This document shows, piece after piece, positions 9,371 through 62,657 of a stretch of 64,000 nt of DNA. Every line of letters starts with the position of its first letter. Within the stretch, counting starts at the first letter, position 1. Origin of the DNA: a phage; the NCBI GenBank assembly GCA_033648345.1, contig GCA_033648345.1_4121.1; one strand, 5' to 3'. The notes below the pieces were generated by a model. It was not told the origin of the DNA and searched no databases. It saw only the letters and a program-made list of their open reading frames with translations. Both the position numbers and the translations under genes were made by a program.

Positions 9371-9396
9371 GTGTAATCATTTTTAAGGAGATACCT

Positions 9397-10577: not shown

Positions 10578-10578
10578 T

Positions 10579-10773: not shown

Positions 10774-10786
10774 GGTTGAGGCACAC

Positions 10787-11646: not shown

Positions 11647-11656
11647 GGAAAGTACA

Positions 11657-12211: not shown

Positions 12212-12220
12212 AGGGTGCTG

Positions 12221-12789: not shown

Positions 12790-12986
12790 AGACGTTTCGT
12801 TTTCACAGGCCGCAGGGGGGGGTCAAAAAAAATTTTCGCTGAAAAACATGTTAAGGTATATGTTTAATATAAAGTTTTAAAATGTGTTCACAGAGTACAG
12901 TTCATGTTTCCTGAAACAAAAAATACCCCGCCGCGAACGTTCTCCTTATATTGGAGTTTACCTTATTAATTACAGTTGAGATTAAG

Positions 12987-14061: not shown

Positions 14062-14243
14062 ATAAAAAAGAACAAATGGAATCATTCATGAATACAATAC
14101 TTCGACGATTCGTAATTGATATTAGACATAACAACAGCATTAGGAATGATATGTACTTCGGTACATATGATATTAGTGAATTGTATATAGCTAATATTCA
14201 CATGGTTTACCGAGATTATATCAAGACACAACACAGGAGTTGA
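14058..14243 (+). CDS. Hypothetical protein
   Basis: 61 aa track ORF, ATGA overlap. Confidence 0.45.
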   Translation: MNKKEQMESFMNTILRRFVIDIRHNNSIRNDMYFGTYDISELYIANIHMVYRDYIKTQHRS

Positions 14244-14244
14244 T

Positions 14245-14715
14245 ATGAGTTTTGCAAGAGCATTAGAAATTGCTAAGTTAATTGATTTATGTAAAAAGGA
14301 AATAGTACTCAATCGTCTCAATGGGTATCTATTCAAGGAAGGTAAAGCTTATTGTCGAATGATATACGATGACAGTAGTGAGTACATTCACATGTACGAA
14401 GAAAACTTAGATTCTTCTGAAACAACACTCACTGGGTGTGATGTTAATCTGGAAGATAATTACATGTACTTCTGTCGTGATGCTGATATTTTAATACAAT
14501 ATACTGACATTATAACTGGTACAGCAGAAAAACATCTTCCGTATTCAGTACTGGATAATGACTGGGGAAGTGAAGAGTTCTACTTCCAGCAGAATACTAT
14601 CTACGAGGAAGATGTGCTTGACAAGCTTGTCATTCTGTGGTACTTTAATAATACCGATTGTCCTAGCTTCTATCTGGACTTGGATCTACTACGAGTTATT
14701 AAAGAGGATATATGA
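14245..14715 (+). CDS. Family B protein (WYF subfamily)
   Basis: 156 aa; GSEEFYFQQNTIYEEDVLDKLVILWYF. Confidence 0.65.
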   Translation: MSFARALEIAKLIDLCKKEIVLNRLNGYLFKEGKAYCRMIYDDSSEYIHMYEENLDSSETTLTGCDVNLEDNYMYFCRDADILIQYTDIITGTAEKHLPYSVLDNDWGSEEFYFQQNTIYEEDVLDKLVILWYFNNTDCPSFYLDLDLLRVIKEDI

Positions 14716-15152
14716 GTTTAGCAAGTGCACTTAAACTGGCACACAAAATACATCACTTCCACGATAACATAAAAAGTGGTTTCTATGGTGATAAAGTAAG
14801 TGCATTTGGTAATGAGTATTATCTATCAGGTATAAAGACATACTCTGATGATATTTTACTTATGGGCCATGATAAAGACAATACTATACAGTACTCTTCA
14901 TGTAGTCAATATACTAGTTTTTTTGTATATATTCCAGGTACTAAGATTACTTTTGACACATCAAATACACCTGTTGACTTCGGGGTACTTGATGGGCCGT
15001 GGGGTACTGAAGAGTATTACTTCCAACAGAGTCTTATTTTTAACCAAGAAATGCTTGATTCCTTGGTTGTTTTGTGGTACTTTAAGGAATTGAATTTTGA
15101 ACCCTTCTTCCTTGACTGGGGAGCATGTGAATATTTAAGTACAGGGGATTAG
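14712..15152 (+). CDS. Family B protein (WYF subfamily)
   Basis: 146 aa; GTEEYYFQQSLIFNQEMLDSLVVLWYF. Confidence 0.65.
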   Translation: MSLASALKLAHKIHHFHDNIKSGFYGDKVSAFGNEYYLSGIKTYSDDILLMGHDKDNTIQYSSCSQYTSFFVYIPGTKITFDTSNTPVDFGVLDGPWGTEEYYFQQSLIFNQEMLDSLVVLWYFKELNFEPFFLDWGACEYLSTGD

Positions 15153-15154
15153 TA

Positions 15155-15643
15155 ATGTCATTACAAAGTGCATTGAAAGAAGCAAAGAAGATTCATGAGT
15201 ACATGATTATGGTACAAGAAGGTTCAGTTCCTGGGGTGTATAAAACATCTGATACTGAATTTTTTGTAAAAGACCGCGACGATTATGATGAGTCAGAGAT
15301 ACATGCAGAAACGTTAGTACTACACACTGATACGGGTGATACTGATGACTGTGAATATCATATGTACAATCAATACATTAGTTATTGTAGAGATGAAGAT
15401 ATTATAATTTACAGCCCTGATTACGATGATTATGACACAATTATTCCGTATTCAGTACTGGATGGTCCGTGGGACAGTGAGGAATATTACTTCCAGAACA
15501 GTACTGTGTACAATGAAGAAGAATTAGATGTTATTGTAATTATGTGGTACTTTAAAAGTATTGGTTCTGGTAGTTTCTATTTCGATTATGAATACGTAGA
15601 GAATACTGTAGGGGAAGATAATGTCATTACGAAGTGCTCTTGA
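15155..15643 (+). CDS. Family B protein (WYF subfamily)
   Basis: 162 aa; DSEEYYFQNSTVYNEEELDVIVIMWYF. Confidence 0.65.
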   Translation: MSLQSALKEAKKIHEYMIMVQEGSVPGVYKTSDTEFFVKDRDDYDESEIHAETLVLHTDTGDTDDCEYHMYNQYISYCRDEDIIIYSPDYDDYDTIIPYSVLDGPWDSEEYYFQNSTVYNEEELDVIVIMWYFKSIGSGSFYFDYEYVENTVGEDNVITKCS

Positions 15644-16064
15644 TAAAGCAAAAGAACTACAGGCATATATTGAAGATATTAAGGCTGGGAAGTTCGAAGA
15701 AGTATACAAAGCCGAGAATGGTAACTACTACAAGGATTGTGATTTTGCTACAACTACAGTTATTCTTGGGTTGAATTCCAAAAGTCCCGCAGATTTTTCA
15801 CAATACAATCCAGATGCAGAATTTATCAGTTATGCTTATGGTGGTGAAATCCGTTTTTATAATCGCAGCAGACCTTTAAAATTGAACTTTGAAGTACTGA
15901 AAGGTCCGTGGGATAGTGAAGAGTATTACTTCCAGAATAGTACTTTGTATGATGATGAAGTACTAGATACTTTAGTTATTATGTGGTACTTTAAAAGTAT
16001 TGATAGTACAAGATTTTATTTGGATTATGAATATGTACGTGAAGCATATAAGGGCAAACGATGA
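15621..16064 (+). CDS. Family B protein (WYF subfamily)
   Basis: 147 aa; DSEEYYFQNSTLYDDEVLDTLVIMWYF. Confidence 0.65.
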   Translation: MSLRSALDKAKELQAYIEDIKAGKFEEVYKAENGNYYKDCDFATTTVILGLNSKSPADFSQYNPDAEFISYAYGGEIRFYNRSRPLKLNFEVLKGPWDSEEYYFQNSTLYDDEVLDTLVIMWYFKSIDSTRFYLDYEYVREAYKGKR

Positions 16065-16375
16065 AATTCTTATACAGTATTCAGTACATTCCAGGTACAA
16101 TTAGTTTAATGTATTTCTTCGATCATGATAATTTCCAGCAACTTGCCGTTAGAAGATGTAATGAATCTTTAATGATTGAATATCTTCACGATTGTGATTA
16201 TATTCCCGACTTTCTTGAATGCGATTACAGTGATGATCATGAAACATTTCTTTTTCAGGAATCACTTATATGGGATAAGAGAATTAATTTTCATGCCTTA
16301 ATTGAGATACAAAAACAAGTGAAGTACTACTGGGATTACTTAATTACCCAAAAATATATAGAGATTGAAATATAA
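16061..16375 (+). CDS. Family B protein
   Basis: 104 aa; HETFLFQESLIWDKRIN. Confidence 0.6.
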   Translation: MKFLYSIQYIPGTISLMYFFDHDNFQQLAVRRCNESLMIEYLHDCDYIPDFLECDYSDDHETFLFQESLIWDKRINFHALIEIQKQVKYYWDYLITQKYIEIEI

Positions 16376-16818
16376 TGTACGAAAGTGATCTTAAGCACGC
16401 TGAGGAATTAGTTAATATAGTAAAGTTCTTTCAAAATAATGTAAAGTACTTAGACGACAAAGGGGCATATATTAGTACTATAAGTGTTGGTACAGATATT
16501 CTAGGATTAGGTAATGAATATAAGTACGAGTCCCATGATTATGATTTGGAATTCAAGTACTTCGAATGGAATTCTGGGACTTTCTATTCAATCGATGAAA
16601 GTGGGGGATACATTGAATTCACAGAAGAAGAAGTACTATTCTTAAATTCAGAATATGCTTACTTCCAGTACAGTACTATATACCCAAGTAGTGCATTAAG
16701 AGCTTTAGTAGTTTTTAATGCATTTCTGAAAGAGAACTTTAATAATTCTATATTCATTGATTTAAATTATGTATATGAACTAAATCAGGTGATATATATG
16801 GAGTCCAGAAAAAAATGA
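16375..16818 (+). CDS. Family B protein
   Basis: 147 aa; SEYAYFQYSTIYPSS. Confidence 0.6.
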   Translation: MYESDLKHAEELVNIVKFFQNNVKYLDDKGAYISTISVGTDILGLGNEYKYESHDYDLEFKYFEWNSGTFYSIDESGGYIEFTEEEVLFLNSEYAYFQYSTIYPSSALRALVVFNAFLKENFNNSIFIDLNYVYELNQVIYMESRKK

Positions 16819-17270
16819 GTTACGAAAGTGCAATCAAGAAAGCAAATGATATTCTAAAAGTTGTTAAGTTCTTCAAAGAAAATCCTGAATACGTAGATGA
16901 TGAACGAAGAGAAGTTTCTAATGGCACGAAGATTACAATTGATTCTTTATTTGACACTAGCAACAACAACTGTAGTACTATTGAATTAGCATACGATTAT
17001 ATTTCATTGAACAGAAAATATGATGAAGTTACGATAGAGCGTCATGAGAATGAAGAATCTTTTAAAATTTCTGATATTTTATCTCTGAGTACAGAAGAAG
17101 GGTACTTTCAGGGAAGTACTGTTTATAATGAAGGAACACTTGACAATCTATGTACATTTAGTGTACTATATCAGAAGTCAGTACTGGATATATTTTATCT
17201 AGACACTGAAAAACTTGATAGGTTAGTTGATTTCGTTACTATAGAAGAGGCATCCTTTGAGAAAAATTAA
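16815..17270 (+). CDS. Family B protein
   Basis: 151 aa; TEEGYFQGSTVYNEG. Confidence 0.6.
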   Translation: MSYESAIKKANDILKVVKFFKENPEYVDDERREVSNGTKITIDSLFDTSNNNCSTIELAYDYISLNRKYDEVTIERHENEESFKISDILSLSTEEGYFQGSTVYNEGTLDNLCTFSVLYQKSVLDIFYLDTEKLDRLVDFVTIEEASFEKN

Positions 17271-17793
17271 TATTAATGATTATGATGCATTACAAGATTT
17301 ATCAAAAAAGATTCGCACTATCGTACCAGTACTGAAAAAATGCAGTACTGGATTAATCGATCCTAGTACTGTTGTTAATGAGAAGTACAATTTTCATTAT
17401 GTATTACAGGGTACTGGGGCATTCCAGAAGTGTGAGGTGCGTGAGAAACACGTAATTGATACATCATTGTTTTCTATTGGTGCACCTATGTCGAATAATA
17501 CTATTTTCCTGGATGACGCAGGAAATATTCAACAATTAACATTTAAGAAAAGGAAAAAGAACAATAACATTGGTGTGTACGCGATGAAGTGGGGTCAACC
17601 TGATTTGAAGCGTGAAATTCACATCCCTAAGTACAATTACAATTCATTTGAAGAACAGTGCTTTCAACTATCTTGTACTGATCCTGACTATGCTATTATT
17701 CAGTTCTATATGGAATTGCAGATTGCATTTAACAGTAATTTGTATATTAACTTATTGGCGATGAACATCGATGAAGTATTCAAAAACATTTAA
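17257..17793 (+). CDS. Family B protein
   Basis: 178 aa; FEEQCFQLSCTDPD. Confidence 0.55.
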   Translation: MRKININDYDALQDLSKKIRTIVPVLKKCSTGLIDPSTVVNEKYNFHYVLQGTGAFQKCEVREKHVIDTSLFSIGAPMSNNTIFLDDAGNIQQLTFKKRKKNNNIGVYAMKWGQPDLKREIHIPKYNYNSFEEQCFQLSCTDPDYAIIQFYMELQIAFNSNLYINLLAMNIDEVFKNI

Positions 17794-17989
17794 TCGAATT
17801 GAATACATGAGAACTGTGAGTGCAGTGTGGGACATATGGTTCACTACTAAACCAAAAATGGATTACCATGACTTTAAGCTATTGTTCTTCGTTGGTTCTA
17901 ATAAACAGGACGTTGCAATGAAGGGTTATATTGAGCACTTACAGGAACTAATACAGAAGAGGATTTATGAAAATAATAGACCAAAGTGA
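17771..17989 (+). CDS. Family A-like small protein
   Basis: 72 aa; FVGSNKQD variant. Confidence 0.5.
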   Translation: MKYSKTFNRIEYMRTVSAVWDIWFTTKPKMDYHDFKLLFFVGSNKQDVAMKGYIEHLQELIQKRIYENNRPK

Positions 17990-18161
17990 CATTGATAAAC
18001 TCTTCGGTATATACTCTAAAAGAATGATGCAAATATCAGACTCATTTAGTACTGAATTCAAAGAATTAAAAGTACTGATGTATTTGGGCACACAGTATCA
18101 GGAACAAGTTGTTAAAGAATATATTGATTCTTTACAGAAGGATATCCGTTATGTACAATGA
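17967..18161 (+). CDS. Family A-like small protein
   Basis: 64 aa; YLGTQYQEQ. Confidence 0.55.
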   Translation: MKIIDQSDIDKLFGIYSKRMMQISDSFSTEFKELKVLMYLGTQYQEQVVKEYIDSLQKDIRYVQ

Positions 18162-18705
18162 ACTTGACTTGACATTTGAGCGTGTAAAAATCTTCATTGA
18201 AACTTATCTTATGCATGAAACTATACTGAAAACAAAAGGAATATGGTTCACTGATAAATTTCTTACTCTAGCTATGAGAGGTGGAATGAAACATCTGTAC
18301 TGCACAGATAATGCAAGAATTTCAGTACTGAATTATGATGAAAGTGTAGCATCCAGTACCAGTTTAATTTCTACATACAATGATAATGTTATTAGTATTA
18401 TGTGCAATATGAATGTCCCATCTATTTCTGTATATAAAAACTGTGATAGTTCATTGGGGTACAAGATTGAGCAGTACTTATATCCTAACACAGAAGAAAA
18501 CATCTTTCAAAATAGTCTTATGTGGGATGATACATCTACTAAGTGCATATATCTTTATAATAAATTAAAAGAGTACATTGTTGATAGTTCAATTAGTACT
18601 GCTGTATTCAGTGTTACTGTTTTTAATGATAATCGTGAAGATATGAGTTATTACAGAGACATTGTAAGAATACATGCAATGTATAAGGATCTACTATGTT
18701 ATTAA
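18151..18705 (+). CDS. Family B protein
   Basis: Track ORF 18109..18705; in-frame ATG at 18151 (MYNELDL); TEENIFQNSLMWDD. Confidence 0.55.
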   Translation: MYNELDLTFERVKIFIETYLMHETILKTKGIWFTDKFLTLAMRGGMKHLYCTDNARISVLNYDESVASSTSLISTYNDNVISIMCNMNVPSISVYKNCDSSLGYKIEQYLYPNTEENIFQNSLMWDDTSTKCIYLYNKLKEYIVDSSISTAVFSVTVFNDNREDMSYYRDIVRIHAMYKDLLCY

Positions 18706-19298
18706 ATGCAAATAAATGTTGTAGTACTGAGGTTCATTTGTATTTTAAGAAATTAGTAAATGATATTATCTATATGCAAGAAATCATTTATCACAAAAGA
18801 ATGGACTTAGAAAAAGCATTAGTTCAGTTCTCTTTTAATCTCGATGGTGATATATCGTTAGATGGTGATGGATTGCGTATAGCATTTGACGGTAATACAA
18901 ATAGGGTTTTCTTTTGGATAGATAATAAATTATGTTCATCAATATGTCGTACTTTTTATAACCCTATTTCGGACTTATATCAATTGGTGTATTCTAAAGG
19001 TGCAGTTGAAGCATCATACGGTGATAGCTTTGCACTAGGAAAGAGTATCCCATATATGCAATCATTTGATATTGAATTAGTCAGTACTGATGAAGATGCA
19101 ATGTTCACAAATGATATAACAATGCAGCGTGAATCTGCAATGAGATATATTACAAATTCTATGCATACATTCTTCGAAAGAACAGAATTTGATAATGTGT
19201 ATATAGCAAATGTAAATATTTTTACTGACCTTTGTCAGTTCTTGAGAAGTATTTTTGATTTCGATGAAAGCTATTGTAAGCTTTATACTGAGGTTTAA
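18696..19298 (+). CDS. Hypothetical protein (weak family B motif)
   Basis: 200 aa; TDEDAMFTNDITM. Confidence 0.5.
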   Translation: MLLNANKCCSTEVHLYFKKLVNDIIYMQEIIYHKRMDLEKALVQFSFNLDGDISLDGDGLRIAFDGNTNRVFFWIDNKLCSSICRTFYNPISDLYQLVYSKGAVEASYGDSFALGKSIPYMQSFDIELVSTDEDAMFTNDITMQRESAMRYITNSMHTFFERTEFDNVYIANVNIFTDLCQFLRSIFDFDESYCKLYTEV

Positions 19299-19303
19299 AT
19301 GCC

Positions 19304-19663
19304 ATGAATACCATTAGTATTACGTACTACACAACGAAAAAATACGTTTGTTGTTTACTTTCGTTAAAGACAAATGATGATATGTTTGAAATGGCGGCAT
19401 ATACATTAGAATTGTCAGAAGATGGATTTCAATGTCATGAAGCGTACTCAAATACACGTGAAGATACAATTGATACTACGCTAATGCAAGAAGATGAGTT
19501 ATTTCAAGAAAGTTTAGTATGGGATAAAAAATACTATTGTGATTTTGATTTTCTTTGTTTAATCCAGAAAGAAATGAAAAGGATCTTCGACAATTATCCG
19601 GTGAAGAGATTGAGTACTAAGCCGGAGCAGTACAGGAGAATTTTATTCCGTTATGAAGACTGA
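19304..19663 (+). CDS. Family B protein (DKKY subfamily)
   Basis: 119 aa; QEDELFQESLVWDKKYYCDFD. Confidence 0.65.
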   Translation: MNTISITYYTTKKYVCCLLSLKTNDDMFEMAAYTLELSEDGFQCHEAYSNTREDTIDTTLMQEDELFQESLVWDKKYYCDFDFLCLIQKEMKRIFDNYPVKRLSTKPEQYRRILFRYED

Positions 19664-19991
19664 ATTAGTAAAAATAATGTACGCAACTCACACTAAGTTA
19701 TTATTGGTTAAAATGGATTATAACAGAAAACATAATGAATTCTGTACATTAATCCGAAATGAGGAATCATTTACATTGCGTACCAATGATAAGCCAATGC
19801 TAACTATAAATGATTTTTCATGTTTAGATACAGGTGAATTGTTCCAGGAGTCATTAGTACTGGATAGTAGTATACATTTGGAAATTGAAGTACTACAACA
19901 GTACCAGATACTTTTGAATCGTATTATGGAAAATTATCCATGTGAAGTTGGTGGACCAATGCAATTCAAATCAAAGATGTATGAATTATGA
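19653..19991 (+). CDS. Family B protein
   Basis: 112 aa; DTGELFQESLVLDSS. Confidence 0.6.
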   Translation: MKTELVKIMYATHTKLLLVKMDYNRKHNEFCTLIRNEESFTLRTNDKPMLTINDFSCLDTGELFQESLVLDSSIHLEIEVLQQYQILLNRIMENYPCEVGGPMQFKSKMYEL

Positions 19992-19998
19992 GGTTAGT

Positions 19999-20532
19999 AT
20001 GTTAGATAAAATAAAGAACAAGGGTACACAATACAATCATCTTAAGTTGGATACGTTCGAGGCAGCAATCAGTACTGCACAAGATATAATTGATATTATC
20101 AAGTACATTAAAGAAAATAAGTTAAAATGTGTGAAAACGCCAGAACGTACAATGTACAAAGATGACGACCTTCACGTATCAGTTGTTAAGCCAAAAGATA
20201 AGGATGGTAATAGAGATTTCTATAATAACAGTGGACAGTATGAATGTGAATATGATCCCGAATTTAGAGGTGGATTCATGTGCTTCAGTAAAACAGATAC
20301 TTCACATGTTGAGATACGTACATTAAAAGGTCTAGGTAGATTTGAGTTCATGGATATAGAACTAAATGAAGAAAACTACTTCCAACAATCATTACTTAAT
20401 ACTGAATACAATTTAGGTGTACTATTCATGTACAAGTACTTATATGAGCACTTAAATGAAGACTTCTATCTGGACTTAGAAGATTACCATTTAGTATGGA
20501 AAGAAATGGTAGAACTTCGTGAGAACTCTTGA
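19999..20532 (+). CDS. Family B protein
   Basis: Track ORF 19942..20532; in-frame ATG at 19999 after RBS GAGG; NEENYFQQSLLNTEYNLGVLFMYKY. Confidence 0.55.
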   Translation: MLDKIKNKGTQYNHLKLDTFEAAISTAQDIIDIIKYIKENKLKCVKTPERTMYKDDDLHVSVVKPKDKDGNRDFYNNSGQYECEYDPEFRGGFMCFSKTDTSHVEIRTLKGLGRFEFMDIELNEENYFQQSLLNTEYNLGVLFMYKYLYEHLNEDFYLDLEDYHLVWKEMVELRENS

Positions 20533-32349: not shown

Positions 32350-33198
32350 ATGGATACAACAGATTTTCGTAATTTCAAAAAGTATTCAGTACTTGAACAT
32401 ATCAACGAATTTCTGAATTCCCCAACACCATTTGGTATCAGTACATCAGATACATACGATGGATATAGAATCTTCCCATGCAATGACTTTCAAATTTCTG
32501 TCAAAAAAGGTACTTCAAAAGAAGTTGCAATTCGTGATGTAGTACTGTATAGCGATTCTTCTATTTCTTACTGTCATGATGTGAACAATTTTGAATCTCT
32601 TTCAACACCTAATTGTTCATACTACAAATCCAATGACACAATGATGTACAAAGAAGAACACATCAATGGGGTTTCGTTTTATAAAACCGCCAGCGATAAA
32701 TCATATACATCTAGAGATGATTTTGGAAAATATACATGCACTATGTATACGGATGATGAAAAATCAAATCGTATTCATTCATTCGAATCCAAATTCAAAG
32801 AGAGTGAAGTTTCAAATATCACTATACAAGAAAAGGTTACCGAAGATGGTGTTGTGTATCGTAGTACTGCATTCTTCCGAATGAAAGATATTGCAACTGG
32901 TCGCCCAATGATGTATAATATTGACATATTCATGAAAGGTGAATCATCGGAAGTGGTGATTAGTACTGGTTATCGTGCCAACTACACATTTACAATGGAA
33001 TCACCTGATGCATCGTTGGTACATCTATTCAACAATTTATATACTTTCCAATTCGAACTTGGTTTCGAAACAAATGAATATCAAATATTTGAGATATTAA
33101 AAAGTAATATTATTAATAAATTGGAATATTACTTCAAGTTAGGCGGGAAGATGAACATAGTTAATACTATGTTACGCAACATAAAAGAAACAATGTAA
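32350..33198 (+). CDS. Hypothetical protein
   Basis: 282 aa track ORF with RBS AGGAG. Confidence 0.6.
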   Translation: MDTTDFRNFKKYSVLEHINEFLNSPTPFGISTSDTYDGYRIFPCNDFQISVKKGTSKEVAIRDVVLYSDSSISYCHDVNNFESLSTPNCSYYKSNDTMMYKEEHINGVSFYKTASDKSYTSRDDFGKYTCTMYTDDEKSNRIHSFESKFKESEVSNITIQEKVTEDGVVYRSTAFFRMKDIATGRPMMYNIDIFMKGESSEVVISTGYRANYTFTMESPDASLVHLFNNLYTFQFELGFETNEYQIFEILKSNIINKLEYYFKLGGKMNIVNTMLRNIKETM

Positions 33199-33518: not shown

Positions 33519-33546
33519 TGGACATGACAATTCCTTGTGATATAAT
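33519..33546 (+). promoter_or_regulatory. Sigma70-like promoter TGGACA-N16-TGaTATAAT (extended -10)
   Basis: Intergenic; GTGATATAAT box shared with other promoters in window. Confidence 0.5.
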
Positions 33547-34374: not shown

Positions 34375-35223
34375 ATGAAACTTTATCTAATCGTTGACTA
34401 CAGTAAGGGTTATTATGACTACGCAGAAGAATCTGAAGGGTATTGCTCGTCTACTAATGTCAATGTACGCACCAGTAATACACATGAGCATGAATCTATT
34501 ACAAACCTAAAAGATTTCATCGCATATCGAGCATTTGAAAAGAATTTCTGTCGTAGTAGATATTCGAAATTTGAGTACCCGTTAATTGATGTTCCTGATG
34601 AATTGATGTTCCAGTTAATGCTCACTGGAGTACAAGATTATGATTACATCGCGTACAATCACATTACTAAGAAAATTTATATCGGTACGTCAACACATGA
34701 CATTTCTATGTATGCATCATGCCCCGATGATCGAATGAATGATAGAAAATCATACTATAGTGGATCAGTTGGTTCAAATGATTCATTAAATGAAAATTTA
34801 TTCTTTGAGTACGAGTTTGATAATCATCGAGGGAATAAAGACCGAGAAGATTATTGTACTAAAATTGATAGTTCAAATGGATATGAAGAAGTGAAAGAAG
34901 CGATAATGCCATATATCCTTGACAAGTACTACAAAGATTTTCAGTACTGTAGTAATTTTCTAATCCGAAATTCTATCATAATCGGTCGTCAAAGTACTGC
35001 ATTCTCTAAGTACTACAATGATTCCCCTGTTGCTGAAAATGAAAACTGTAATATTCTCTCAATTCCACGTGAAGATATGGTATTCATGTTCACATCTTTC
35101 ATTGAAGATGATGAGTTGTATGTAAAAAACAAGCACAGGTTCATGCCAAGTAAGATTGAGGTTATGAGAAGCTTAAGTGCAGATATCTTAACTAATTTCA
35201 CTGAAAAAACAGAATACAACTGA
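34375..35223 (+). CDS. Hypothetical protein (weak family B motif)
   Basis: 282 aa; PDELMFQLMLTGVQD. Confidence 0.55.
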   Translation: MKLYLIVDYSKGYYDYAEESEGYCSSTNVNVRTSNTHEHESITNLKDFIAYRAFEKNFCRSRYSKFEYPLIDVPDELMFQLMLTGVQDYDYIAYNHITKKIYIGTSTHDISMYASCPDDRMNDRKSYYSGSVGSNDSLNENLFFEYEFDNHRGNKDREDYCTKIDSSNGYEEVKEAIMPYILDKYYKDFQYCSNFLIRNSIIIGRQSTAFSKYYNDSPVAENENCNILSIPREDMVFMFTSFIEDDELYVKNKHRFMPSKIEVMRSLSADILTNFTEKTEYN

Positions 35224-35253
35224 GACATACCATAAGTTTATGATATAATGTAA

Positions 35254-47922: not shown

Positions 47923-48228
47923 ATGGATATACAAACATTCAATAAACTAAAGTACTATGACAATGGTTTTGCTATTATCATTGATGAACTAGATGGAATA
48001 CCATATGAGTATCATAATGATGTAATGAAGATAGTAAAAAGTATTTGTAATGATTTAAAAACTATTTTCGAAAATGAATATGTATACGACTTAGGTACAA
48101 ACAATAAGAAACTATACATAAAGAAATTCTGTGGAACGCATTGTGGTCTGATGGTTGATTTAGGTTTAAGTGCTGACAACAATTTCGAAGCATGTAGTTT
48201 ATATCTGGATGAAATGCGAATCTCATGA
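47923..48228 (+). CDS. Hypothetical protein
   Basis: 101 aa track ORF. Confidence 0.5.
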   Translation: MDIQTFNKLKYYDNGFAIIIDELDGIPYEYHNDVMKIVKSICNDLKTIFENEYVYDLGTNNKKLYIKKFCGTHCGLMVDLGLSADNNFEACSLYLDEMRIS

Positions 48229-48254
48229 GACATATCTTGATTCGGTGATATAAT
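48227..48254 (+). promoter_or_regulatory. Candidate promoter GAGACA-N16-TGaTATAAT
   Basis: Extended -10 GTGATATAAT about 20 nt upstream of RBS GGAGTAG and the GTG start at 48286. Confidence 0.45.
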
Positions 48255-55503: not shown

Positions 55504-55886
55504 TGGAAAATATCGTTGTGTATGTAATTGAGTACAATGATAAAATAAAGTACGTAATTAATGGTTATAAACATTACTCCAGTGCAGCCAGAAAGCTGGA
55601 AATATATTCAAAAGAAGCAAGAAACTACTGCTTAGATGATGATTCAGTTGAGGTTTGGATTGATGGAAATGCAGAGTACTTTGATGCTAACTTCTATGAA
55701 GATCTTGACAAATCAAATGAATTATACATTTATGTAGAAAATGAACGTTATTACACAAATTCTTTGTTTGACATTACCGACTCTACGGTGTATGATAATG
55801 CTATGGTTAAGTTGTTAAAGATTGACCACGATATGTTTAATAAACATACAATTTGCGGTTTACTCGATTTTTTAAGAAACTTGTAG
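55503..55886 (+). CDS. Hypothetical protein
   Basis: 127 aa track ORF, ATGA-type overlap. Confidence 0.5.
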   Translation: MENIVVYVIEYNDKIKYVINGYKHYSSAARKLEIYSKEARNYCLDDDSVEVWIDGNAEYFDANFYEDLDKSNELYIYVENERYYTNSLFDITDSTVYDNAMVKLLKIDHDMFNKHTICGLLDFLRNL

Positions 55887-55911
55887 ACAAATACGAACAC
55901 TGTGATATAAT
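55884..55911 (+). promoter_or_regulatory. Promoter TAGACA-N16-TGaTATAAT (extended -10)
   Basis: Same architecture as the element at 59410; 35 nt upstream of clpP RBS GAGGAAAA. Confidence 0.55.
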
Positions 55912-55945: not shown

Positions 55946-56641
55946 ATGGTTGAACAATTCAATTTTGGTGGTTATGCTGGTGGTGAAGTTCGCAACATTT
56001 CTATTCCTTATGTAGTTGAAAAAGTTAATGGTGCAGAACGTACTTATGACCTAGCATCTCGTATGATGCAAGACCGTATCATTTTCCTTGATACTGACTT
56101 CAATGACCAAATGGCACATATCATCAAGCAACAATTGGTGTGGTTGGATTCTCAGGGTTCGGAACCAATTACCTTCTACATTAGTTCTCCTGGTGGTTCA
56201 GTACACGCAGGTTTGGGTATCGCTGACATTGCTAAGTCTTGTGTATCTCCTATCCGTACAGTAGTAATGGGTTATGCAGCATCAATGGGTTGTTATACTC
56301 AATCAGTAGTTGGTACTAAAGGTTTCCGTCTTGGCGGGAAGCGTTCTTACTTCATGTGTCACCAAGTAAGTTCCGGTACTCAGGGTTTGATTACTGATCA
56401 GAAGATTTCTTTGAAACACTCTGATGCATTGAACACACTATTGACGAAAGAAATTGCTGAAGCAGTTGGTGTATCACACGAACAACTACTGAAAGATGCG
56501 GATCGTGACCTGTGGTTGAACGCTGAAGAAGCACTCGAATACGGTGAACATGGTTTCATTGATGGTATCATCCTCGGACCACGCAACGAAGAAGGTAAGT
56601 ATCTCGTCAAACGTCGCGGTGGCGTTGAAGAGTGGGTCTAA
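55946..56641 (+). CDS. clpP: ATP-dependent Clp protease proteolytic subunit (ClpP)
   Basis: 231 aa; collinear with E. coli ClpP from memory: RIIFL, ISSPGGSV, catalytic-Ser context GYAASMG, His context MCHQ, EALEYG. Confidence 0.8.
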   Translation: MVEQFNFGGYAGGEVRNISIPYVVEKVNGAERTYDLASRMMQDRIIFLDTDFNDQMAHIIKQQLVWLDSQGSEPITFYISSPGGSVHAGLGIADIAKSCVSPIRTVVMGYAASMGCYTQSVVGTKGFRLGGKRSYFMCHQVSSGTQGLITDQKISLKHSDALNTLLTKEIAEAVGVSHEQLLKDADRDLWLNAEEALEYGEHGFIDGIILGPRNEEGKYLVKRRGGVEEWV

Positions 56642-56653
56642 TTTGAATTTCAT

Positions 56654-56983
56654 TTGATGCCTCATTTGGGGCATCTTATTTCTGGAGATTTTATGAAAGT
56701 TCTTGTACGTAATAATACTGAAGTCAATGATGTGTTAGATGATTCAGAGTTTATTAATACCGCATTAGATCAGATTAGTGCAGTGGCTATTGAATTGAAA
56801 GGTGTTGACGAGGCAGAACGAGTACTCAATGGTTTTTCTATTGTTCTCGAATTAATGCAAGAAGTTCTTATTAAAAAGAACATTAATCCAATTAACGCAG
56901 TTCAACACGCAGAAGCTATGCGTCAAGAACATGGCACATTCTCAGATAAAAAATTCATCAGTACTGACGAGGGGAAAGAATAA
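56654..56983 (+). CDS. Hypothetical protein
   Basis: 109 aa track ORF immediately after clpP. Confidence 0.5.
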   Translation: MMPHLGHLISGDFMKVLVRNNTEVNDVLDDSEFINTALDQISAVAIELKGVDEAERVLNGFSIVLELMQEVLIKKNINPINAVQHAEAMRQEHGTFSDKKFISTDEGKE

Positions 56984-56984
56984 T

Positions 56985-57431
56985 ATGTCTAATGCACAAT
57001 ACAAAGAAGGTTCTGCCGCGTTTAAAAACAAAGTAGTTTTTAACAATGAACAGCTAAAATCACAGCACCCATTATTCCGTCAAGGATATCGTGCTGCACA
57101 AGCTGAAGCTATGAAGAAAAATAACGTAACCTTCCCAACAACTCTGTATGATATTCCCAAACGTCCTTCAGTGTTTAAAGCAGAATGGACTGACATTATG
57201 GCAGCAACTAAACGTCCTCGTTTTGCTAAACTTCACACTGATGAAGGTCGCTGGATGTTGATGGGTATTATGAAAGCAGTTGAGAAACAGGCACATACTA
57301 TTGTTCGTTACAAAGACGTTGTAGCTATGGTTGATAAAGCATTTGATCTTATTCTCCAGTACGGTTATGATGAAGGTGTACTAACTGTTTCCGATTGTGA
57401 GCAGTACCAGTACACTCCATTCCAGAAATAA
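56985..57431 (+). CDS. Hypothetical protein
   Basis: Track ORF 56931..57431; in-frame ATG at 56985 after RBS GAGGGGAAAG. Confidence 0.5.
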   Translation: MSNAQYKEGSAAFKNKVVFNNEQLKSQHPLFRQGYRAAQAEAMKKNNVTFPTTLYDIPKRPSVFKAEWTDIMAATKRPRFAKLHTDEGRWMLMGIMKAVEKQAHTIVRYKDVVAMVDKAFDLILQYGYDEGVLTVSDCEQYQYTPFQK

Positions 57432-57438
57432 TTACTTA

Positions 57439-57467
57439 GGGAATCTTTCATGATTCCCATTTTATTT
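57439..57467 (+). terminator. Rho-independent terminator
   Basis: GGGAATC-TTTCAT-GATTCCC perfect 7 bp hairpin followed by ATTTTATTT. Confidence 0.7.
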
Positions 57468-57550
57468 GCTGCATATCAAAAATTATTGATCAAAAATTGA
57501 TCCATACAAGGTAAATACCCAAGGTGTAATTGTTAATAGGGTAGGTGGAT

Positions 57551-58069
57551 ATGCAGCAATATAAATTATCTGAAGATCAAAGTGATTTATTTTTCAATCA
57601 CATGTTTTTAATTGATGAATTTGCCGAAAGTTTAAATTCAGAGGCAATAGCTATAGTTAAAAAGTGGTATTCTTGCTATAACAAGAACAAAAAATGGTAT
57701 TGGTTGAATAGAAATTTAAAATCATTTCTAGGAACAATAACTAGTACTGATAGTATTGAACTAATATATAGTTCCATTGGCTATAGTTACTTAACCAAGC
57801 ATAATAATACGTCAATAGAGTCTGGCTTTAAAATCAAGCGTCTAATGAAATTGACGGGATTGAGTGCAGAAACTATACAAAACGATACAGAAAAGTTATG
57901 GAAGATTATAGAATTCATGAATAAAAATATGTCATTTATATATAGAAACTATGATATATTCACTGATGTACGACAATTTTATAAGAGTCCATATTCACTT
58001 AATGAGAAATATTTCCGACACATGGAATTATGCTCAACTATGGTTGATGAATGGAATTTAGAGGATTAA
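57551..58069 (+). CDS. Hypothetical protein
   Basis: Track ORF 57545 (GTG); ATG at 57551 after AGGGTAGG. Confidence 0.5.
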   Translation: MQQYKLSEDQSDLFFNHMFLIDEFAESLNSEAIAIVKKWYSCYNKNKKWYWLNRNLKSFLGTITSTDSIELIYSSIGYSYLTKHNNTSIESGFKIKRLMKLTGLSAETIQNDTEKLWKIIEFMNKNMSFIYRNYDIFTDVRQFYKSPYSLNEKYFRHMELCSTMVDEWNLED

Positions 58070-58070
58070 T

Positions 58071-58598
58071 ATGAAATACACTGCTCTTAGCCCAACTGAT
58101 ACTAAAGTATGGTTGAGTAATTTGAACAAAACTATTATTTTAACCAAAAAAGTGATATCAACAGCTAATTCATTAGATGTAAATATCAAGAAGAATGTTC
58201 TTAAATATCATCACCGAAGTAAACTTAGTACTTGGTACTCCAATATTTTTTACGGCTTATATGGGATGGATGATATTTTAATTGGTACATCATCTGGGTC
58301 ATGCTTCAGTGCTGGTGGTATGTGCTTTATGGATTTGGGTTTTTCATTATCCGATGAAGAAATCGAGTTTAAACAATTCCGTGACAAGTTACTGGGTTCG
58401 GGTGATATCAAGTTCTGTACAGAATTAATGGGAGCATGGGACGTTTATGCAGCGAAACCATTTGACATTGAAGAATCAGATGTGCTAAACTACCTTCGTG
58501 TTCTTAAAATACATTCGAACTGTAAAACCAAATTACAATCCCTAGGAGTATATGATGAAACACTTGACGTGGTTGAAGATAGCCGAAGTCGTGGCTGA
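58071..58598 (+). CDS. Hypothetical protein
   Basis: 175 aa track ORF. Confidence 0.5.
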   Translation: MKYTALSPTDTKVWLSNLNKTIILTKKVISTANSLDVNIKKNVLKYHHRSKLSTWYSNIFYGLYGMDDILIGTSSGSCFSAGGMCFMDLGFSLSDEEIEFKQFRDKLLGSGDIKFCTELMGAWDVYAAKPFDIEESDVLNYLRVLKIHSNCKTKLQSLGVYDETLDVVEDSRSRG

Positions 58599-59028
58599 AG
58601 AGAGTAAATGCATTTCACAGAAAGTTGGTTGTGTTATTGTTAAAAATAACCGAGTATTGAGTACTGGTTATAATGGCACTCCATCTAAACAACCTAACTG
58701 CTGTGACGCTAATAAGCACTTAGTTAATGGTGGACGTTTCCAAGACTGGGTTAGCGATGACGCAAAGCATGAACACCATGAATGGAGTAATATCCATGAA
58801 ATCCATGCTGAAATGAATGCATTGTTATACAGTTCACCTACCGAACGTCAGGGAGCAACACTTTACACAACGCTGCAACCATGCTATACTTGTTCTAAGT
58901 TGATCGCGGGAAGTGGTATTGCTCGCGTGATTTATCACAAAAGTTATCCTCGCACTCCACCAGAAGCTATTAAAGTACTGGAAGATGCTGGGATTATTGT
59001 AAATTGCATTTATGATAAGGGGTTGTGA
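58552..59028 (+). CDS. cd: dCMP deaminase
   Basis: 158 aa; zinc-binding cytidine/deoxycytidylate deaminase signature HAEMNA and PCYTC; N-terminus aligns with T4 Cd from memory (xESKCxSxKVGxVIxKNxRxxSTGYNGxP). Confidence 0.85.
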   Translation: MMKHLTWLKIAEVVAEESKCISQKVGCVIVKNNRVLSTGYNGTPSKQPNCCDANKHLVNGGRFQDWVSDDAKHEHHEWSNIHEIHAEMNALLYSSPTERQGATLYTTLQPCYTCSKLIAGSGIARVIYHKSYPRTPPEAIKVLEDAGIIVNCIYDKGL

Positions 59029-59291
59029 CTTTGACTTTCTTGATTTTAGGTATTCCATTTGCAGTTGTGATTCTTGTACTCTTAGTGATGATGGTATTAA
59101 ATGATAATACTACTCCACCAGTGATGCGTAATCATGAAGTACGATTTTCAGCACAAAACAACAAGTACTACATTGTAAATTGTTTAACTTGTAAAGAGTA
59201 TAAAGTAACTGGTAAATTTGGTTTTACCATTTATTATAAAGACCGTGTTGAAGCTGACATGATTTGTCAGAAACTTAATACGGTAGAATAA
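59025..59291 (+). CDS. Small membrane protein
   Basis: 88 aa; GTG start; N-terminal helix LILGIPFAVVILVLLVMMVL. Confidence 0.5.
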   Translation: MTLTFLILGIPFAVVILVLLVMMVLNDNTTPPVMRNHEVRFSAQNNKYYIVNCLTCKEYKVTGKFGFTIYYKDRVEADMICQKLNTVE

Positions 59292-59320
59292 AAAAAGGAG
59301 CCATAAGGCTCCTTTTTCTT
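59292..59320 (+). terminator. Rho-independent terminator
   Basis: A-tract, AGGAGCC-ATAA-GGCTCCT hairpin, then TTTTTCTTTT. Confidence 0.75.
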
Positions 59321-59409
59321 TTGTTAGTACACAACTTGTTTGAATTTCAGGAAAACTCTTAGAACCAACAACGAGTTCAGTACTACCACGTTATTTGTTG
59401 ACAAAAGCA

Positions 59410-59437
59410 TAGACATTATACATTCGTGTGATATAAT
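59410..59437 (+). promoter_or_regulatory. Promoter TAGACA-N16-TGaTATAAT (extended -10)
   Basis: Same architecture as 55884; in 280 bp intergenic region; a second weaker TTGACT-N15-TATAAT lies at about 59506..59532. Confidence 0.5.
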
Positions 59438-59572
59438 CATTCAAAAGAAGGTACAAAGGCGGGGTGATTCTGTGAGGGAATTTGTGAAGTGATATAAAAA
59501 ACAATTTGACTTAAGTTAAATCTTCCTATAATATTATTTATGTAATCAACAATCAACTAAGAGGGTTAACCA

Positions 59573-60181
59573 GTGGTACGATTATGTAAAGAAATCATCC
59601 AATCTATTATTATTATTTTCTTAATTAACTTTCCTGCAAGTGCAGGTGTTGAAAGAAAAAGTATCATTAGATATGATGAATCTAAACAGACAGTTCAGTT
59701 CATTTCAACTTTAACTGAAAATACTGTAAACCGTTTGATGGTTTTTAGAGAAACACACCCATTTGACACTATCATCATTACGTCACCTGGTGGTGATTTT
59801 GATGCGGGAGTGGCACTAGGAAATTTTGTCAATGATAACAATTTAACAATTATTGTTGAAAGATATTGTAATTCTTCTTGCACTATCGCATTCTTTAGTG
59901 CTAATATAGAAAACAGATACATGATGAAGGACTCAATTCTAGGTCTACATAATGTGTCAATCGAAAGTAAAGCACGAAATAGTGATGACACATACATATC
60001 AGTTCGCCAAATGACTATTTTTGCTGAACAGCTATCAACTAAGGTTGGTGTTCTATTTGCGTTATATGCAGCGAATGGTATTCCTCCAGAATTGTTAGTG
60101 GAGGTTAGTAAGGTTCGTGGTAATGAAGTTGTGAGACTTACACCAGATCAGTTGCTCGAATTAGGTAGTATCATTCATTAG
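59573..60181 (+). CDS. Secreted ClpP/SppA-like serine peptidase (putative)
   Basis: 202 aa; GTG start after RBS AGAGGG; N-terminal signal-like hydrophobic segment; ITSPGGDFDAG resembles the ClpP/S49 xSPGG motif. Confidence 0.45.
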   Translation: MVRLCKEIIQSIIIIFLINFPASAGVERKSIIRYDESKQTVQFISTLTENTVNRLMVFRETHPFDTIIITSPGGDFDAGVALGNFVNDNNLTIIVERYCNSSCTIAFFSANIENRYMMKDSILGLHNVSIESKARNSDDTYISVRQMTIFAEQLSTKVGVLFALYAANGIPPELLVEVSKVRGNEVVRLTPDQLLELGSIIH

Positions 60182-60273
60182 TATTAGATACAAAATAATA
60201 ATATTATAATAAGAGGATGATAAAGTGGTACATCCTTTGTTATAAGTTCACATACACTAGGAGTGTATAAACT

Positions 60274-60534
60274 ATGACAAATTTACAAAACTTAACATCT
60301 CTTGTTTTTTATGCAACAACTATTGTATATTGCATTACATTAGTTTTAACATGTTTCATCTATAAAGACTACAAACGTGGTTTTATGGATTCCAGTACAC
60401 ACAAATTTGCATCCAAGTTCGAAGCAGGAATTTACTATGTTCTATCAATTTCTTATGGAGCATGTTTACTTACACTAGGGTTGCTGATATACTGGTTGTA
60501 TACGGCACTTTTTGCACAAGGAGTTATTTCATGA
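60274..60534 (+). CDS. Small membrane protein
   Basis: 86 aa; two hydrophobic segments; RBS AGGAGTG. Confidence 0.5.
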   Translation: MTNLQNLTSLVFYATTIVYCITLVLTCFIYKDYKRGFMDSSTHKFASKFEAGIYYVLSISYGACLLTLGLLIYWLYTALFAQGVIS

Positions 60535-61124
60535 CTTGTATTATCGCTCACACAAATGGCACATCTTCCTTCATCGCTGGTGATAAATTAGGAAGCAATG
60601 GTTTCACTAAAGCAGTTCAAACTGAGCCTAAAGTGTTTGAGAAAGAGTTCATTAAACTCAATGAGGATGGTCTTACTCGCACTAAAGAAGTAATGGCGTT
60701 AGGGTATACTACATCGTTCCGCATGGGTCAGTTGTTGAATTACAACCTAACTCTACCAGAACAAGTTGCAGGGGAAACCTTTTCACAGTATCTAGTACTG
60801 AAAGTTATTCCTATCATTCGTCAAATGTTTAAAGATGAATGGGGTGCTCGTGATGCATCACAAGACGTTGGTGGTGGTCAGTTCATTATTCTTCATAATC
60901 ATACGATTTATGAAGTTCAAGAAGACTTTTCAGTACTGCAACCTAAAACACAAATTACTGCTGTCGGAAGTGGGACTTATCATGCAATTGCATCCATGTC
61001 AGCGTATATTGAAGTTCAAGAAGAAACCAATGTTCAGTTACATGAACGTGTTGAGTCTATTTTCAAAATTGTCAGTGATAATGTAACAAGTGTTAGTCCA
61101 GAGTTTGATATTTTGAAATACTGA
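60531..61124 (+). CDS. HslV-like N-terminal nucleophile hydrolase (putative peptidase)
   Basis: Track ORF 60462..61124; ATG at 60531 gives ATGA overlap; N-terminus MTCIIAHTNG..FIAGD and internal AVGSGTYHAIASMSAY resemble HslV TTIVSVRRNG..IAGD and IGSGGPYAQAAARAL. Confidence 0.45.
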   Translation: MTCIIAHTNGTSSFIAGDKLGSNGFTKAVQTEPKVFEKEFIKLNEDGLTRTKEVMALGYTTSFRMGQLLNYNLTLPEQVAGETFSQYLVLKVIPIIRQMFKDEWGARDASQDVGGGQFIILHNHTIYEVQEDFSVLQPKTQITAVGSGTYHAIASMSAYIEVQEETNVQLHERVESIFKIVSDNVTSVSPEFDILKY

Positions 61125-61356: not shown

Positions 61357-62109
61357 GTGATATCAGATAAATTTATACAAAATGCTGGGAACAAAAGATT
61401 ACTTATAATTTCAGGGGCAGGTCTTTCAGTTGAGAGCGGGATGGAACCATTCCGCTTTGATGATGGGTTGTGGGACAATTTCAAAATTAATGATGTTTGT
61501 AACATTGCACGACTTAGTTCTAAGTATCATATAGTTCATTCATTTTATAATACATTGCGTGTAAAATTAGGTGAATGTCATCCTAATGAAATGCATTACT
61601 TTATTAAATCATTAGAAGATTTGTATGGTGATTGTTTTTTACACATGACTTCTAATATGGATGATCTATATACTAGAATTGGTGGAACCGAACTCAAACT
61701 ACACGGCAATTTATGTGAAGTAATTGAGAACTTTTCTATTAATACTGATGATTACAATGTCATTAATTGTGGTTATGAACCATATATCCCTAAAGCTGAT
61801 GTTTTTGCAAAACCAAATGTAGTGATGATTGGTGAGTATCATCGCTACGTTGATGGGGTACGTCTCCCCATTTATGAAGAACGAAATGAAGTGTTGAAAA
61901 GTCTCACAGAAAATGATACAGTTGTAGTTATTGGAAGTAGTGATACAGTACTGGTATGGTCCAGACTAGCTGGTGCACTTCCATGCTATAGTGTAAATGT
62001 TAACATCCGAAAAAATGATAATGATTTTCTTTTTAATGAGAAGGTCATCAAACCTGCGACGAAAGCAATTCCACAGGTTGAAACTATAATTAAGGAACGA
62101 ATGCGATGA
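61357..62109 (+). CDS. Sir2-family NAD-dependent protein deacylase / ADP-ribosyltransferase
   Basis: 250 aa; GTG start after AAGGAG; sirtuin signature ISGAGLSVESGMEPFR (consensus GAGISxxSGIPxFR), HG catalytic His context LHGNL, GSS motif VIGSSDTV. Confidence 0.7.
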   Translation: MISDKFIQNAGNKRLLIISGAGLSVESGMEPFRFDDGLWDNFKINDVCNIARLSSKYHIVHSFYNTLRVKLGECHPNEMHYFIKSLEDLYGDCFLHMTSNMDDLYTRIGGTELKLHGNLCEVIENFSINTDDYNVINCGYEPYIPKADVFAKPNVVMIGEYHRYVDGVRLPIYEERNEVLKSLTENDTVVVIGSSDTVLVWSRLAGALPCYSVNVNIRKNDNDFLFNEKVIKPATKAIPQVETIIKERMR

Positions 62110-62657
62110 GTAAAGCTGAAGTACCACTGGGACAACTGGGGAAACGTGCAAATTTTGTATTCTGTTTCTTTTATGCAAAAGAATGTACCCCATACTCTGG
62201 TTATGAACTAAATGATATTCCAGTGGTTAACTTAGTACTCCTACAAGTGCGTTGGGATGGATTGTTGGGTGCATGTGGTGGAACAGTTGAAAGTACTGAT
62301 AAGTCATTAGAAGATGCGTTACAACGTGAAGTACAAGAAGAAATGAACTATATCATTGACAAAAGTCGCCTGTCTCCATTAAAATCACTTGAATTGTTTC
62401 CAGAGGGTCACTCACATAGCTATAGTTATGAAATGACTTATGCTGAACTTAAAAAACTTCGTGATAATTATGCATATGGCAAACATGCTAGTGCAGAGGT
62501 GGCTGGTGTAAATTTATGTCACATCTCTCGTTATTCGAAGGGACAAAATCGAGAAGCAGGATATAATAATCTTATGACACAGAACTTCATCGGAACTGCG
62601 AAACAAGAATTAGAGTATCTTGTACAAAAAGAAAACTTACTAATCAGCTATCTATAG
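62106..62657 (+). CDS. Nudix hydrolase
   Basis: 183 aa; ATGA overlap with Sir2 gene; Nudix box GACGGTVESTDKSLEDALQREVQEEMN fits Gx5Ex7REUxEExGU. Confidence 0.7.
   Translation: MSKAEVPLGQLGKRANFVFCFFYAKECTPYSGYELNDIPVVNLVLLQVRWDGLLGACGGTVESTDKSLEDALQREVQEEMNYIIDKSRLSPLKSLELFPEGHSHSYSYEMTYAELKKLRDNYAYGKHASAEVAGVNLCHISRYSKGQNREAGYNNLMTQNFIGTAKQELEYLVQKENLLISYL

Follow-up and report, generated by a model that had tools for sequence, protein, structure and literature searches.

The clustering of three peptidase-like genes within about 5 kb of a phage genome raises the question of what such a set of enzymes does, and whether it depends on unfoldases of the host. These genes, at positions 55946–61124, are found in a 64,000-nucleotide stretch of phage DNA (hereafter the window) from contig GCA_033648345.1_4121.1 of the GenBank assembly GCA_033648345.1. 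A first-pass annotation, made from the sequence without database searches, had assigned them to a ClpP, a ClpP/SppA-like protein with a signal peptide, and an HslV-like N-terminal nucleophile (Ntn) hydrolase, and had suggested that these proteins may hijack host unfoldases, with no cognate ATPase in view. All three open reading frames (ORFs) are present exactly as described, and profile, alignment, and structure searches uphold the three identities. The best explanation, which we regard as probable but by no means firm, is that the region belongs to a non-structural block of a Rak2-like coliphage with three mechanistically independent peptidases.

Judging from nucleotide identity, the source of the region is an Asteriusvirus-related (Rak2-like) jumbo myovirus, a coliphage with a genome of about 375 kb. 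The 5.3-kb region shares 98.9% identity over its full length with nine jumbo coliphages (approximately 350–385 kb; WPEC5, vB_Ec-M-J, Ecwhy_1, fEgEco12, and others) and about 80% identity with the Asteriusvirus group (PBECO4, phAPEC6, G17, and 121Q). The early/middle non-structural block around the peptidase genes also holds genes for DNA ligase, dCMP deaminase, Sir2, NUDIX, and PhoH proteins. Neither a capsid gene nor an AAA+ unfoldase gene was found within the window, and the whole genome of fEgEco12 (PP777464.1) served as the reference for genes located outside it. Compared with their orthologs in PBECO4, the ClpP and the HslV-like protein have 96 and 88% identity, respectively, the exported ClpP-fold protein has 52%, and the neighboring small membrane proteins have 50–65%. 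No match to the PADLOC defense models was found for any of the proteins. The records of the 98.9%-identical relatives already label the three genes as proteases; these genes, their protease annotation, and the Clp partners in Rak2-like phages are already public and are known gene content. The new points presented here are modest, namely the evidence for a complete ClpA/ClpS/ClpP set, the doubtful labels in some records, and the delineation of a family of ClpP-fold proteins with a C-x-S-x-C motif.

The first-pass assignment of the first gene to ClpP is well supported. Its product contains the motif SSPGG and matches the Pfam family CLP_protease (PF00574) with 142.9 bits (cut-off 20.2; E = 1.3e-41), and 109 ClpP sequences in PDB match it, the best with E = 3e-36. 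It shares 36% identity with E. coli ClpP. Residues S113, H139, and D188 correspond to S111, H136, and D185 of the E. coli protein (precursor numbering) and are invariant in a four-sequence alignment that includes phage orthologs. The scores against the NCBIfam models of cellular ClpP are 153–156 bits (approximately 1e-45) and fall below the equivalog cut-off; in the case of TIGR00493, the score of 153 bits compares with a cut-off of 308.6, which indicates a divergent ClpP rather than an ortholog of host ClpP. The score against the NCBIfam model Clp_rel_HeadMat is 51 bits (cut-off 120), and by these profile scores the phage ClpP resembles cellular ClpP far more than the ClpP-related head-maturation family. 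Extra segments are present at both ends, with 19 residues at the N-terminus, which compare with the propeptide of E. coli ClpP, and about 20 at the C-terminus. No scaffold fusion was found in the protein, which matches only positions 56–262 of the 622-position PHROG 94 profile. The neighbors of the gene encode a DNA ligase, a phosphoesterase, and a dCMP deaminase. A literature search on phage-encoded ClpP found no paper.

As for the unfoldase, the view that this ClpP has no cognate ATPase and hijacks host unfoldases appears to be an artifact of the 64-kb window, as the near-identical relatives encode a ClpA with an IGM loop and a protein with a ClpS core. In fEgEco12, gene g327 (168,077–170,365; about 88 kb downstream of the ClpP gene) encodes a 762-amino-acid (aa) ClpA with the domains AAA, AAA_lid_9, AAA_2, and ClpB_D2-small, and its best NCBIfam model is TIGR02639 (ClpA). 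The alignment with E. coli ClpA (E = 5.6e-178; residues 17–741) covers the N-domain, D1, and D2, and the ClpB-type middle domain is lacking. The ClpP-docking tripeptide IGL of E. coli ClpA is IGM in g327 ("RKSIGL" aligned to "KRSIGM"), and the corresponding tripeptides of other phage ClpA homologs follow the pattern [IL]G[MVF] (IGV in RaK2, LGM in GAP32, and IGF in MIJ3 and Atu_ph07). Nine phage records contain a ClpA with an identity of 99% or more, a count that equals that of the nine closest relatives, with EC.P1 and WPEC5 present in both lists; the identity falls to 93% for the Asteriusvirus proteins, 75% for that of RaK2, and about 60% for those of the CBB/GAP32 group. Conservation of ClpA across most Rak2-like phages was also reported for Atu_ph07 and its relatives (PMC6102473). 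In addition, g414 of fEgEco12 encodes a ClpS-like protein of 181 aa. The profile of its family matches only ClpS chains in PDB (best E = 4.4e-5), residues D82 and D83, which align with the N-degron-binding DD of ClpS, are invariant in the family, and several homologs carry the Pfam ClpS domain (PF02617). When E. coli ClpX, HslU, and Lon were searched by tblastn against the complete fEgEco12 genome, no homolog was found, and the only match was to the D2 domain of ClpA (for HslU, the Walker region with E = 0.001).

Because the relatives encode their own ClpA and ClpS-like adaptor, the phage ClpP need not borrow partners from the host, and a phage-encoded ClpAPS system is the most economical reading of these sequence data. 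The ClpP, which is divergent and predicted to be catalytically complete, would form the chamber of this machine; the phage ClpA, with its IGM loop, and the ClpS-core adaptor would unfold cytoplasmic substrates and deliver them to ClpP. Compared with bacterial ClpAPS, the phage set has the same ClpP fold family with the Ser-His-Asp triad, the same N-domain, D1, D2, and [IL]G[FLMV] loop in ClpA, and the same ClpS core with DD. The differences are that the phage genes are scattered over about 170 kb and do not form an operon, that the phage ClpP is only 36% identical to its bacterial counterpart, with the C-terminal extra of about 20 residues, an altered pocket, and scores below the NCBIfam equivalog cut-offs, and that the ClpS-like protein is extended at its N-terminus by about 65 residues. 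The Clp sets of other Rak2-like phages (Atu_ph07, CBB, RaK2, and PBECO4; PMC6102473; PMC5259590) contain the same ClpP and ClpA orthologs, and nothing substantive differs. These patterns illustrate that a system may seem to lack components when only 64 kb of a genome of about 375 kb are viewed and the partners are located 90–170 kb away.

The second protein is a ClpP-fold protein that is predicted to be exported. It contains the motif TSPGG, and its hydrophobic N-terminal segment ends in PASA|G, in agreement with the initial description of an xSPGG protein with a signal-like N-terminus. The predicted signal peptide consists of MVRLCKE, a hydrophobic core, and the PASA|G site, and the segment INFPASA is invariant in close homologs. 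The match to Pfam CLP_protease is borderline (20.6 bits; cut-off 20.2), and that to PHROG 26024 ("protease") is 3.7e-70. Close homologs are confined to Rak2-like jumbo phages (48 phage records and 10 protein clusters). A profile search found 1492 distant cluster representatives (50% identity clusters; E ≤ 0.001) that include bacterial chromosomal genes; almost none of these distant relatives are named, and one of them is a "hypothetical protein" of Ferrimonas balearica. Residues S71, G73, G74, C99, S101, C103, and H126 are invariant across 26 diverse members, and S101 and H126 align with the nucleophile and the histidine of ClpP. Among 159 family representatives, the C-x-S-x-C motif and the SxGG motif are each present in 157, a hydrophobic N-terminus in 132, and a lipobox-like motif in 18. 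No conserved Asp or Lys was found across the C-x-S-x-C family. Assignment to SppA/S49 did not hold up, as neither a Ser-Lys dyad nor an S49 profile match was found, and some family members have weak matches to the Pfam domain NfeD1b_N. The window protein shares its ClpP fold and its predicted non-cytoplasmic location with SppA (S49) and NfeD/1510-N. It differs from SppA and NfeD in having a conserved Ser and His instead of a Ser-Lys dyad, the C-x-S-x-C motif, and only one small domain behind a cleavable signal peptide.

If exported, this protein cannot be served by a cytoplasmic unfoldase, so the proposed hijacking of host unfoldases would be precluded in this case as well, and a location outside the cytoplasm implies ATP-independent activity. 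We infer that the protein is a peptidase of the periplasm or envelope that needs no ATP, is possibly stabilized by a disulfide, and acts on host envelope targets. It would pass through Sec and operate either in the periplasm or as an inner-membrane-anchored enzyme, probably with a Ser101-His126 dyad. The nucleophile elbow is flanked by the two invariant Cys of C-x-S-x-C, which could form a disulfide in the oxidizing periplasm. Its substrates would be host envelope proteins, as the fast divergence of the protein (52% identity to PBECO4) suggests. The family is the least characterized part of the gene set. It is well populated and still lacks a curated model, as none was found for it in Pfam or NCBIfam.

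The third protein, 100% identical to a public database protein, starts with M-T-C and contains VGSG, consistent with the N-terminal Thr and GSG segment noted initially. All 72 homologs compared begin with M-T-C at the same Met, which indicates that the shorter start (60531) is right and the start at 60462 is not. The protein matches PHROG 1040 ("peptidase HslV family") with 2.6e-22. It has no match in Pfam, including the proteasome family, and its score of 19.1 against the NCBIfam HslV model NF003964 (cut-off 137) places it outside that family. Across 33 sequences down to 25% identity, M1, T2, C3, D18, K34, G146, and G148 are invariant; T2, D18, K34, and G-x-G represent the Thr1/Asp17/Lys33/G-x-G apparatus of the proteasome family. 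Of the three window proteins, the ClpP thus has its triad, and the putative catalytic residues of the other two are invariant, as the alignments called for in the first-pass annotation show. The AlphaFold2 (AF2) model of the HslV-like protein has a pLDDT of 92.4, and Foldseek matched it to HslV with E = 6e-10 (TM scores 0.64/0.73) and to BPH with TM scores of 0.71/0.75. The sequence identity to HslV is 16–18%. We know of no ATPase partner of BPH. The family is found in 198 phage records, including T5-like Epseptimavirus as well as Aeromonas and Vibrio phages, and the gene is usually located among early nucleotide-metabolism genes. The protein would be a member of a phage-borne branch of the proteasome/HslV superfamily in which removal of Met1 exposes Thr1, and it is probably a self-compartmentalized ring peptidase of the cytoplasm. 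Host HslU or the phage ClpA may activate it, or it may act without an activator; of the three proteins, it is the only one for which hijacking of a host unfoldase is still a candidate.

Phage-borne proteasome homologs (PPH, AAH, and CPH) have already been cataloged (PMC8665760). The window protein shares with HslV, BPH, PPH, AAH, and CPH the Ntn proteasome fold, the equivalents of Thr1/Asp17/Lys33/G-x-G, and the absence of a propeptide beyond Met1; it is phage-encoded, as PPH, AAH, and CPH are, and has no adjoining ATPase gene. It differs from all of these in the absence of a Pfam proteasome match and in the invariant Cys3, and the Rak2-like clade has an inserted beta-hairpin (alignment columns 45–60). 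PPH lacks helix H2 (PMC8665760), whereas the AF2 model of the window protein has this helix (H84–104), so the protein is not PPH-like. A second, very divergent HslV-like gene is found in fEgEco12 (g518; PP777464.1 305560–306057). Its product of 165 aa belongs to phrog_24804, has a weak match to phrog_1040 (2.8e-6), and may be a PPH-type proteasome homolog; the gene adjoins an RNA polymerase sigma factor gene. It was not accepted as a clear paralog, as it has no pairwise similarity to the window protein and the PHROG 1040 match is weak.

The annotation of related genomes offers another account of the ClpP. GenBank records carry the label "head maturation protease" for these genes, the best PHROG match of the ClpP is phrog_94 of the same name, and the neighboring ORF at 58071–58598 falls in a PHROG named "virion structural protein"; on this basis, the ClpP, and perhaps also the second ClpP-fold protein, could be morphogenetic or virion-associated proteases. 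The organization of the head genes makes such a role very improbable. The head module of fEgEco12 comprises genes for the portal (199.8 kb), a structural protein, a "prohead core protein protease" (202.8 kb), a scaffold-like protein, and the major capsid protein (204.7 kb), and its protease belongs to Pfam Peptidase_S77 (T4 gp21 type; E = 8e-21). The same arrangement is found in phAPEC6, where the protease gp227 adjoins the capsid protein gp225 (PMC7247149), and in CBB (protease CBB_255; PMC5259590). This T4 gp21-type protease is the capsid-maturation protease of the phage group. It is unrelated in sequence to the three window genes, and its gene lies outside the window, about 122 kb from the ClpP gene (80.5 kb in fEgEco12). 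The earlier remark that the ClpP has no adjoining capsid or scaffold gene and that a prohead-protease role is unsupported here agrees with the location of the S77 gene between the portal and major capsid genes, and the recommended look for capsid genes elsewhere in the genome revealed a head module with its own protease. Moreover, the ClpP is below the cut-off of the ClpP-related head-maturation model and its gene, surrounded by early metabolic genes, is preceded by a sigma-70-type promoter of its own, and "Clp" is absent from the whole text of the phAPEC6 paper, including its table of 62 virion proteins (PMC7247149). The ClpP is thus not the capsid-maturation protease, and several GenBank records are probably wrong in labeling these genes "head maturation protease". 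Rather unlikely as well, if less so, is the model of the first-pass annotation, in which the phage supplies only the chambers, the ClpP docking on host ClpX or ClpA and the HslV-like protein on HslU, and thereby redirects host proteolysis. No unfoldase is encoded within the window, the axial N-terminal segment of the phage ClpP resembles that of E. coli ClpP, and ClpX and HslU homologs are absent from the phage genome, so that any partner of these types would be the host's. However, the phage has its own ClpA with the IGM docking loop and a ClpS-like adaptor, the presumed pocket residues of its ClpP differ from those of E. coli, the HslV-like protein is distant from HslV in sequence and at least as close to BPH in fold, and the second protein is predicted to be exported.

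A further alternative is that the second protein, the third protein, or both are not peptidases and instead have another chemistry, such as that of a connectase-like ligase/transpeptidase or an amidohydrolase, or are inactive scaffolds. Non-protease members such as connectase are known in the proteasome superfamily (PMC8665760), the second protein lacks a conserved Asp, and the Ser of G-S-G in the third protein is variable. However, the nucleophile and general-base residues are invariant in distant homologs (S101/H126 with the SxGG oxyanion motif, and T2/D18/K34), and we consider this alternative improbable. Several observations also weigh against the explanation by three independent peptidases. 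Among the residues that we take to form the IGF-loop pocket of E. coli ClpP, four are changed in the phage ClpP (Y60 to T76, F82 to S98, F112 to L129, and L114 to G131); Y78, V106, M108, and I209, which presumably belong to the same pocket, are retained or conservatively replaced. These replacements fit co-evolution with the phage ClpA and also make the docking of any ClpA less certain. ClpA, ClpS, and the S77 protease are present in the near-identical relatives rather than in the window itself, the export of the second protein is predicted from sequence features, and the Ser of G-S-G is not among the invariant residues of the HslV-like family. In addition, one peptide of the ClpP of CBB (CBB_104; 4.5% coverage) was found by virion mass spectrometry, which is the sole hint of virion association (PMC5259590).

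If the explanation by three independent peptidases is true, a complete and self-sufficient ClpAPS, together with an exported ClpP-fold peptidase that needs no ATP and a peptidase of the proteasome type, would make up an unusually rich host-takeover toolkit. A broader and clearly tentative proposal is that ClpP-fold peptidases of the periplasm or of lipoprotein type, with Ser-His catalysis and an elbow locked by the C-x-S-x-C disulfide, form a large family as yet without a name, which Rak2-like phages may have recruited to cleave host envelope proteins for receptor destruction, superinfection exclusion, or lysis control. In parallel, a phage ClpA/ClpS/ClpP set would act as an orthogonal N-degron machine and rewire proteolysis in the cytoplasm as the phage takes over the cell.

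Features of the peptidase region in the window, with positions numbered from the first nucleotide of the window
Feature	Position	Strand	Basis or remarks
Phage ClpP, MEROPS S14-type serine peptidase, 231 aa, Ser113/His139/Asp188	55946..56641	+	PF00574, PDB, alignment
Sigma-70-like extended -10 promoter, TAGACA-N13-TGaTATAAT	55884..55911	+	Upstream of clpP; 11/12 consensus match, with TG; function inferred
Terminator-like hairpin	56656..56675	+	Directly 3' of clpP; 8-bp stem with 5 GC pairs, T-rich tail; -14.3 kcal/mol, z = -2.9
Strong terminator-like hairpin	59292..59317	+	11-bp stem and T run; -16.7 kcal/mol, z = -4.0; 0/200 shuffles as stable
Extended -10 promoter motif, second copy	59410..59437	+	Upstream of the exported ClpP-fold gene
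Exported ClpP-fold serine peptidase (predicted), 202 aa	59573..60181	+	S71-x-G73-G74, C99-x-S101-x-C103, and H126 invariant
Predicted Sec signal peptide, aa 1–24, cleavage ASA|G	59573..59644	+	Positive n-region, 13-residue hydrophobic core, A-x-A site
86-aa protein with two predicted transmembrane segments	60274..60534	+	ATGA overlap of its stop codon with the HslV-like start
Proteasome/HslV-fold Ntn hydrolase, 197 aa	60531..61124	+	M1-T2-C3, D18, K34, and G146-x-G148 invariant

For the expression of these genes, Shine-Dalgarno sequences are present upstream of clpP (GAGGA), of the exported ClpP-fold gene (AAGAGGG; GTG start at 59573), and of the HslV-like gene (AAGGAG; ATG start at 60531). 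The stronger hairpin closes an upstream unit that consists of the dCMP deaminase gene and an ORF for an 88-aa protein with a transmembrane segment. The claim that each of the two later peptidase genes is preceded by its own promoter or terminator applies to the exported ClpP-fold gene, which follows this hairpin and the second promoter copy, and fails for the HslV-like gene, for which no promoter or terminator of its own was seen; ahead of the 86-aa ORF there is only a weak hairpin. The ATG of the HslV-like gene overlaps the stop codon of this ORF (ATGA, 60531–60534). The HslV-like gene apparently shares a transcript with the exported ClpP-fold gene, and its translation seems to be coupled to that of the 86-aa ORF. 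With one mismatch allowed, the promoter-like motif has five copies in the window, all on the plus strand, compared with 0.16 expected. The recurrent form is (T/G)(A/G)GACA-N13-TGATATAAT, at 33519–33546, 35222–35249, 48227–48254, 55884–55911, and 59410–59437, and it is probably the early/middle promoter type that this phage uses with the host RNA polymerase.

The 86-aa ORF is kept at the same position in PBECO4 with 65% identity (locus L002, 7703–7957), where it is unannotated. Small membrane-protein genes are also found directly upstream of HslV-like genes in the T5-like phage Sw2 (DUF3307) and in a metagenomic locus (L020), and not in four other contexts. A constant association of a membrane protein with the HslV-like gene was considered and not adopted, as three of seven contexts (the window/PBECO4, Sw2, and L020) are too few for such a claim. 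A conserved operon of the exported ClpP-fold and HslV-like genes was likewise rejected. In two distant phage lineages, a ClpP-like gene is followed by a small ORF and then by an HslV-like gene, and the ClpP-like proteins of these lineages have no signal peptides; in RaK2, XaC1, and locus L014, NAD-salvage genes come after the exported gene; and in T5-like phages, no ClpP accompanies the HslV-like gene. Taken together, these patterns indicate that the clustering is lineage-specific. In another metagenomic locus (L019, 1029–2843), a 604-aa FtsH-like protein with Peptidase_M41 and a weak AAA match is encoded about 1.2 kb upstream of a distant HslV-like gene, a further case of an AAA protease carried by a phage close to a member of this Ntn hydrolase family.

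Downstream of the peptidase genes, the window contains a Sir2-family gene (PF02146; E = 1.4e-19) and NUDIX genes (61357–62657). The same block is present in a distant Rak2-like contig (locus L014, 8697–13868), together with an NMN-adenylyltransferase/NUDIX fusion, NAMPT, and an Acb1-like gene. These gene contents suggest an NAD+ salvage or counter-defense module. The ORF at 58071–58598 (phrog_19307, "virion structural protein") overlaps the start of the dCMP deaminase gene (58552–59028) by 47 nt, and in PBECO4 it is split into two annotated genes. Two 282-aa ORFs of the window (32350–33198 and 34375–35223) were considered as possible paralogs, which was rejected on comparison. Finally, two features of the fEgEco12 genome were observed. 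The segments 1–20000 and 355000–374733 have the same gene lengths and order, as exemplified by "protein spackle" at 5284–5583 and 359024–359323; these matching genome ends indicate that the deposited record carries a terminal repeat about 20 kb long. Moreover, the segment 330398–348732 contains 16 minus-strand genes of about 1.1 kb with one plus-strand gene interposed, and 12 of these genes are annotated as chromosome-condensation (RCC1-like) or DNA-condensation proteins.

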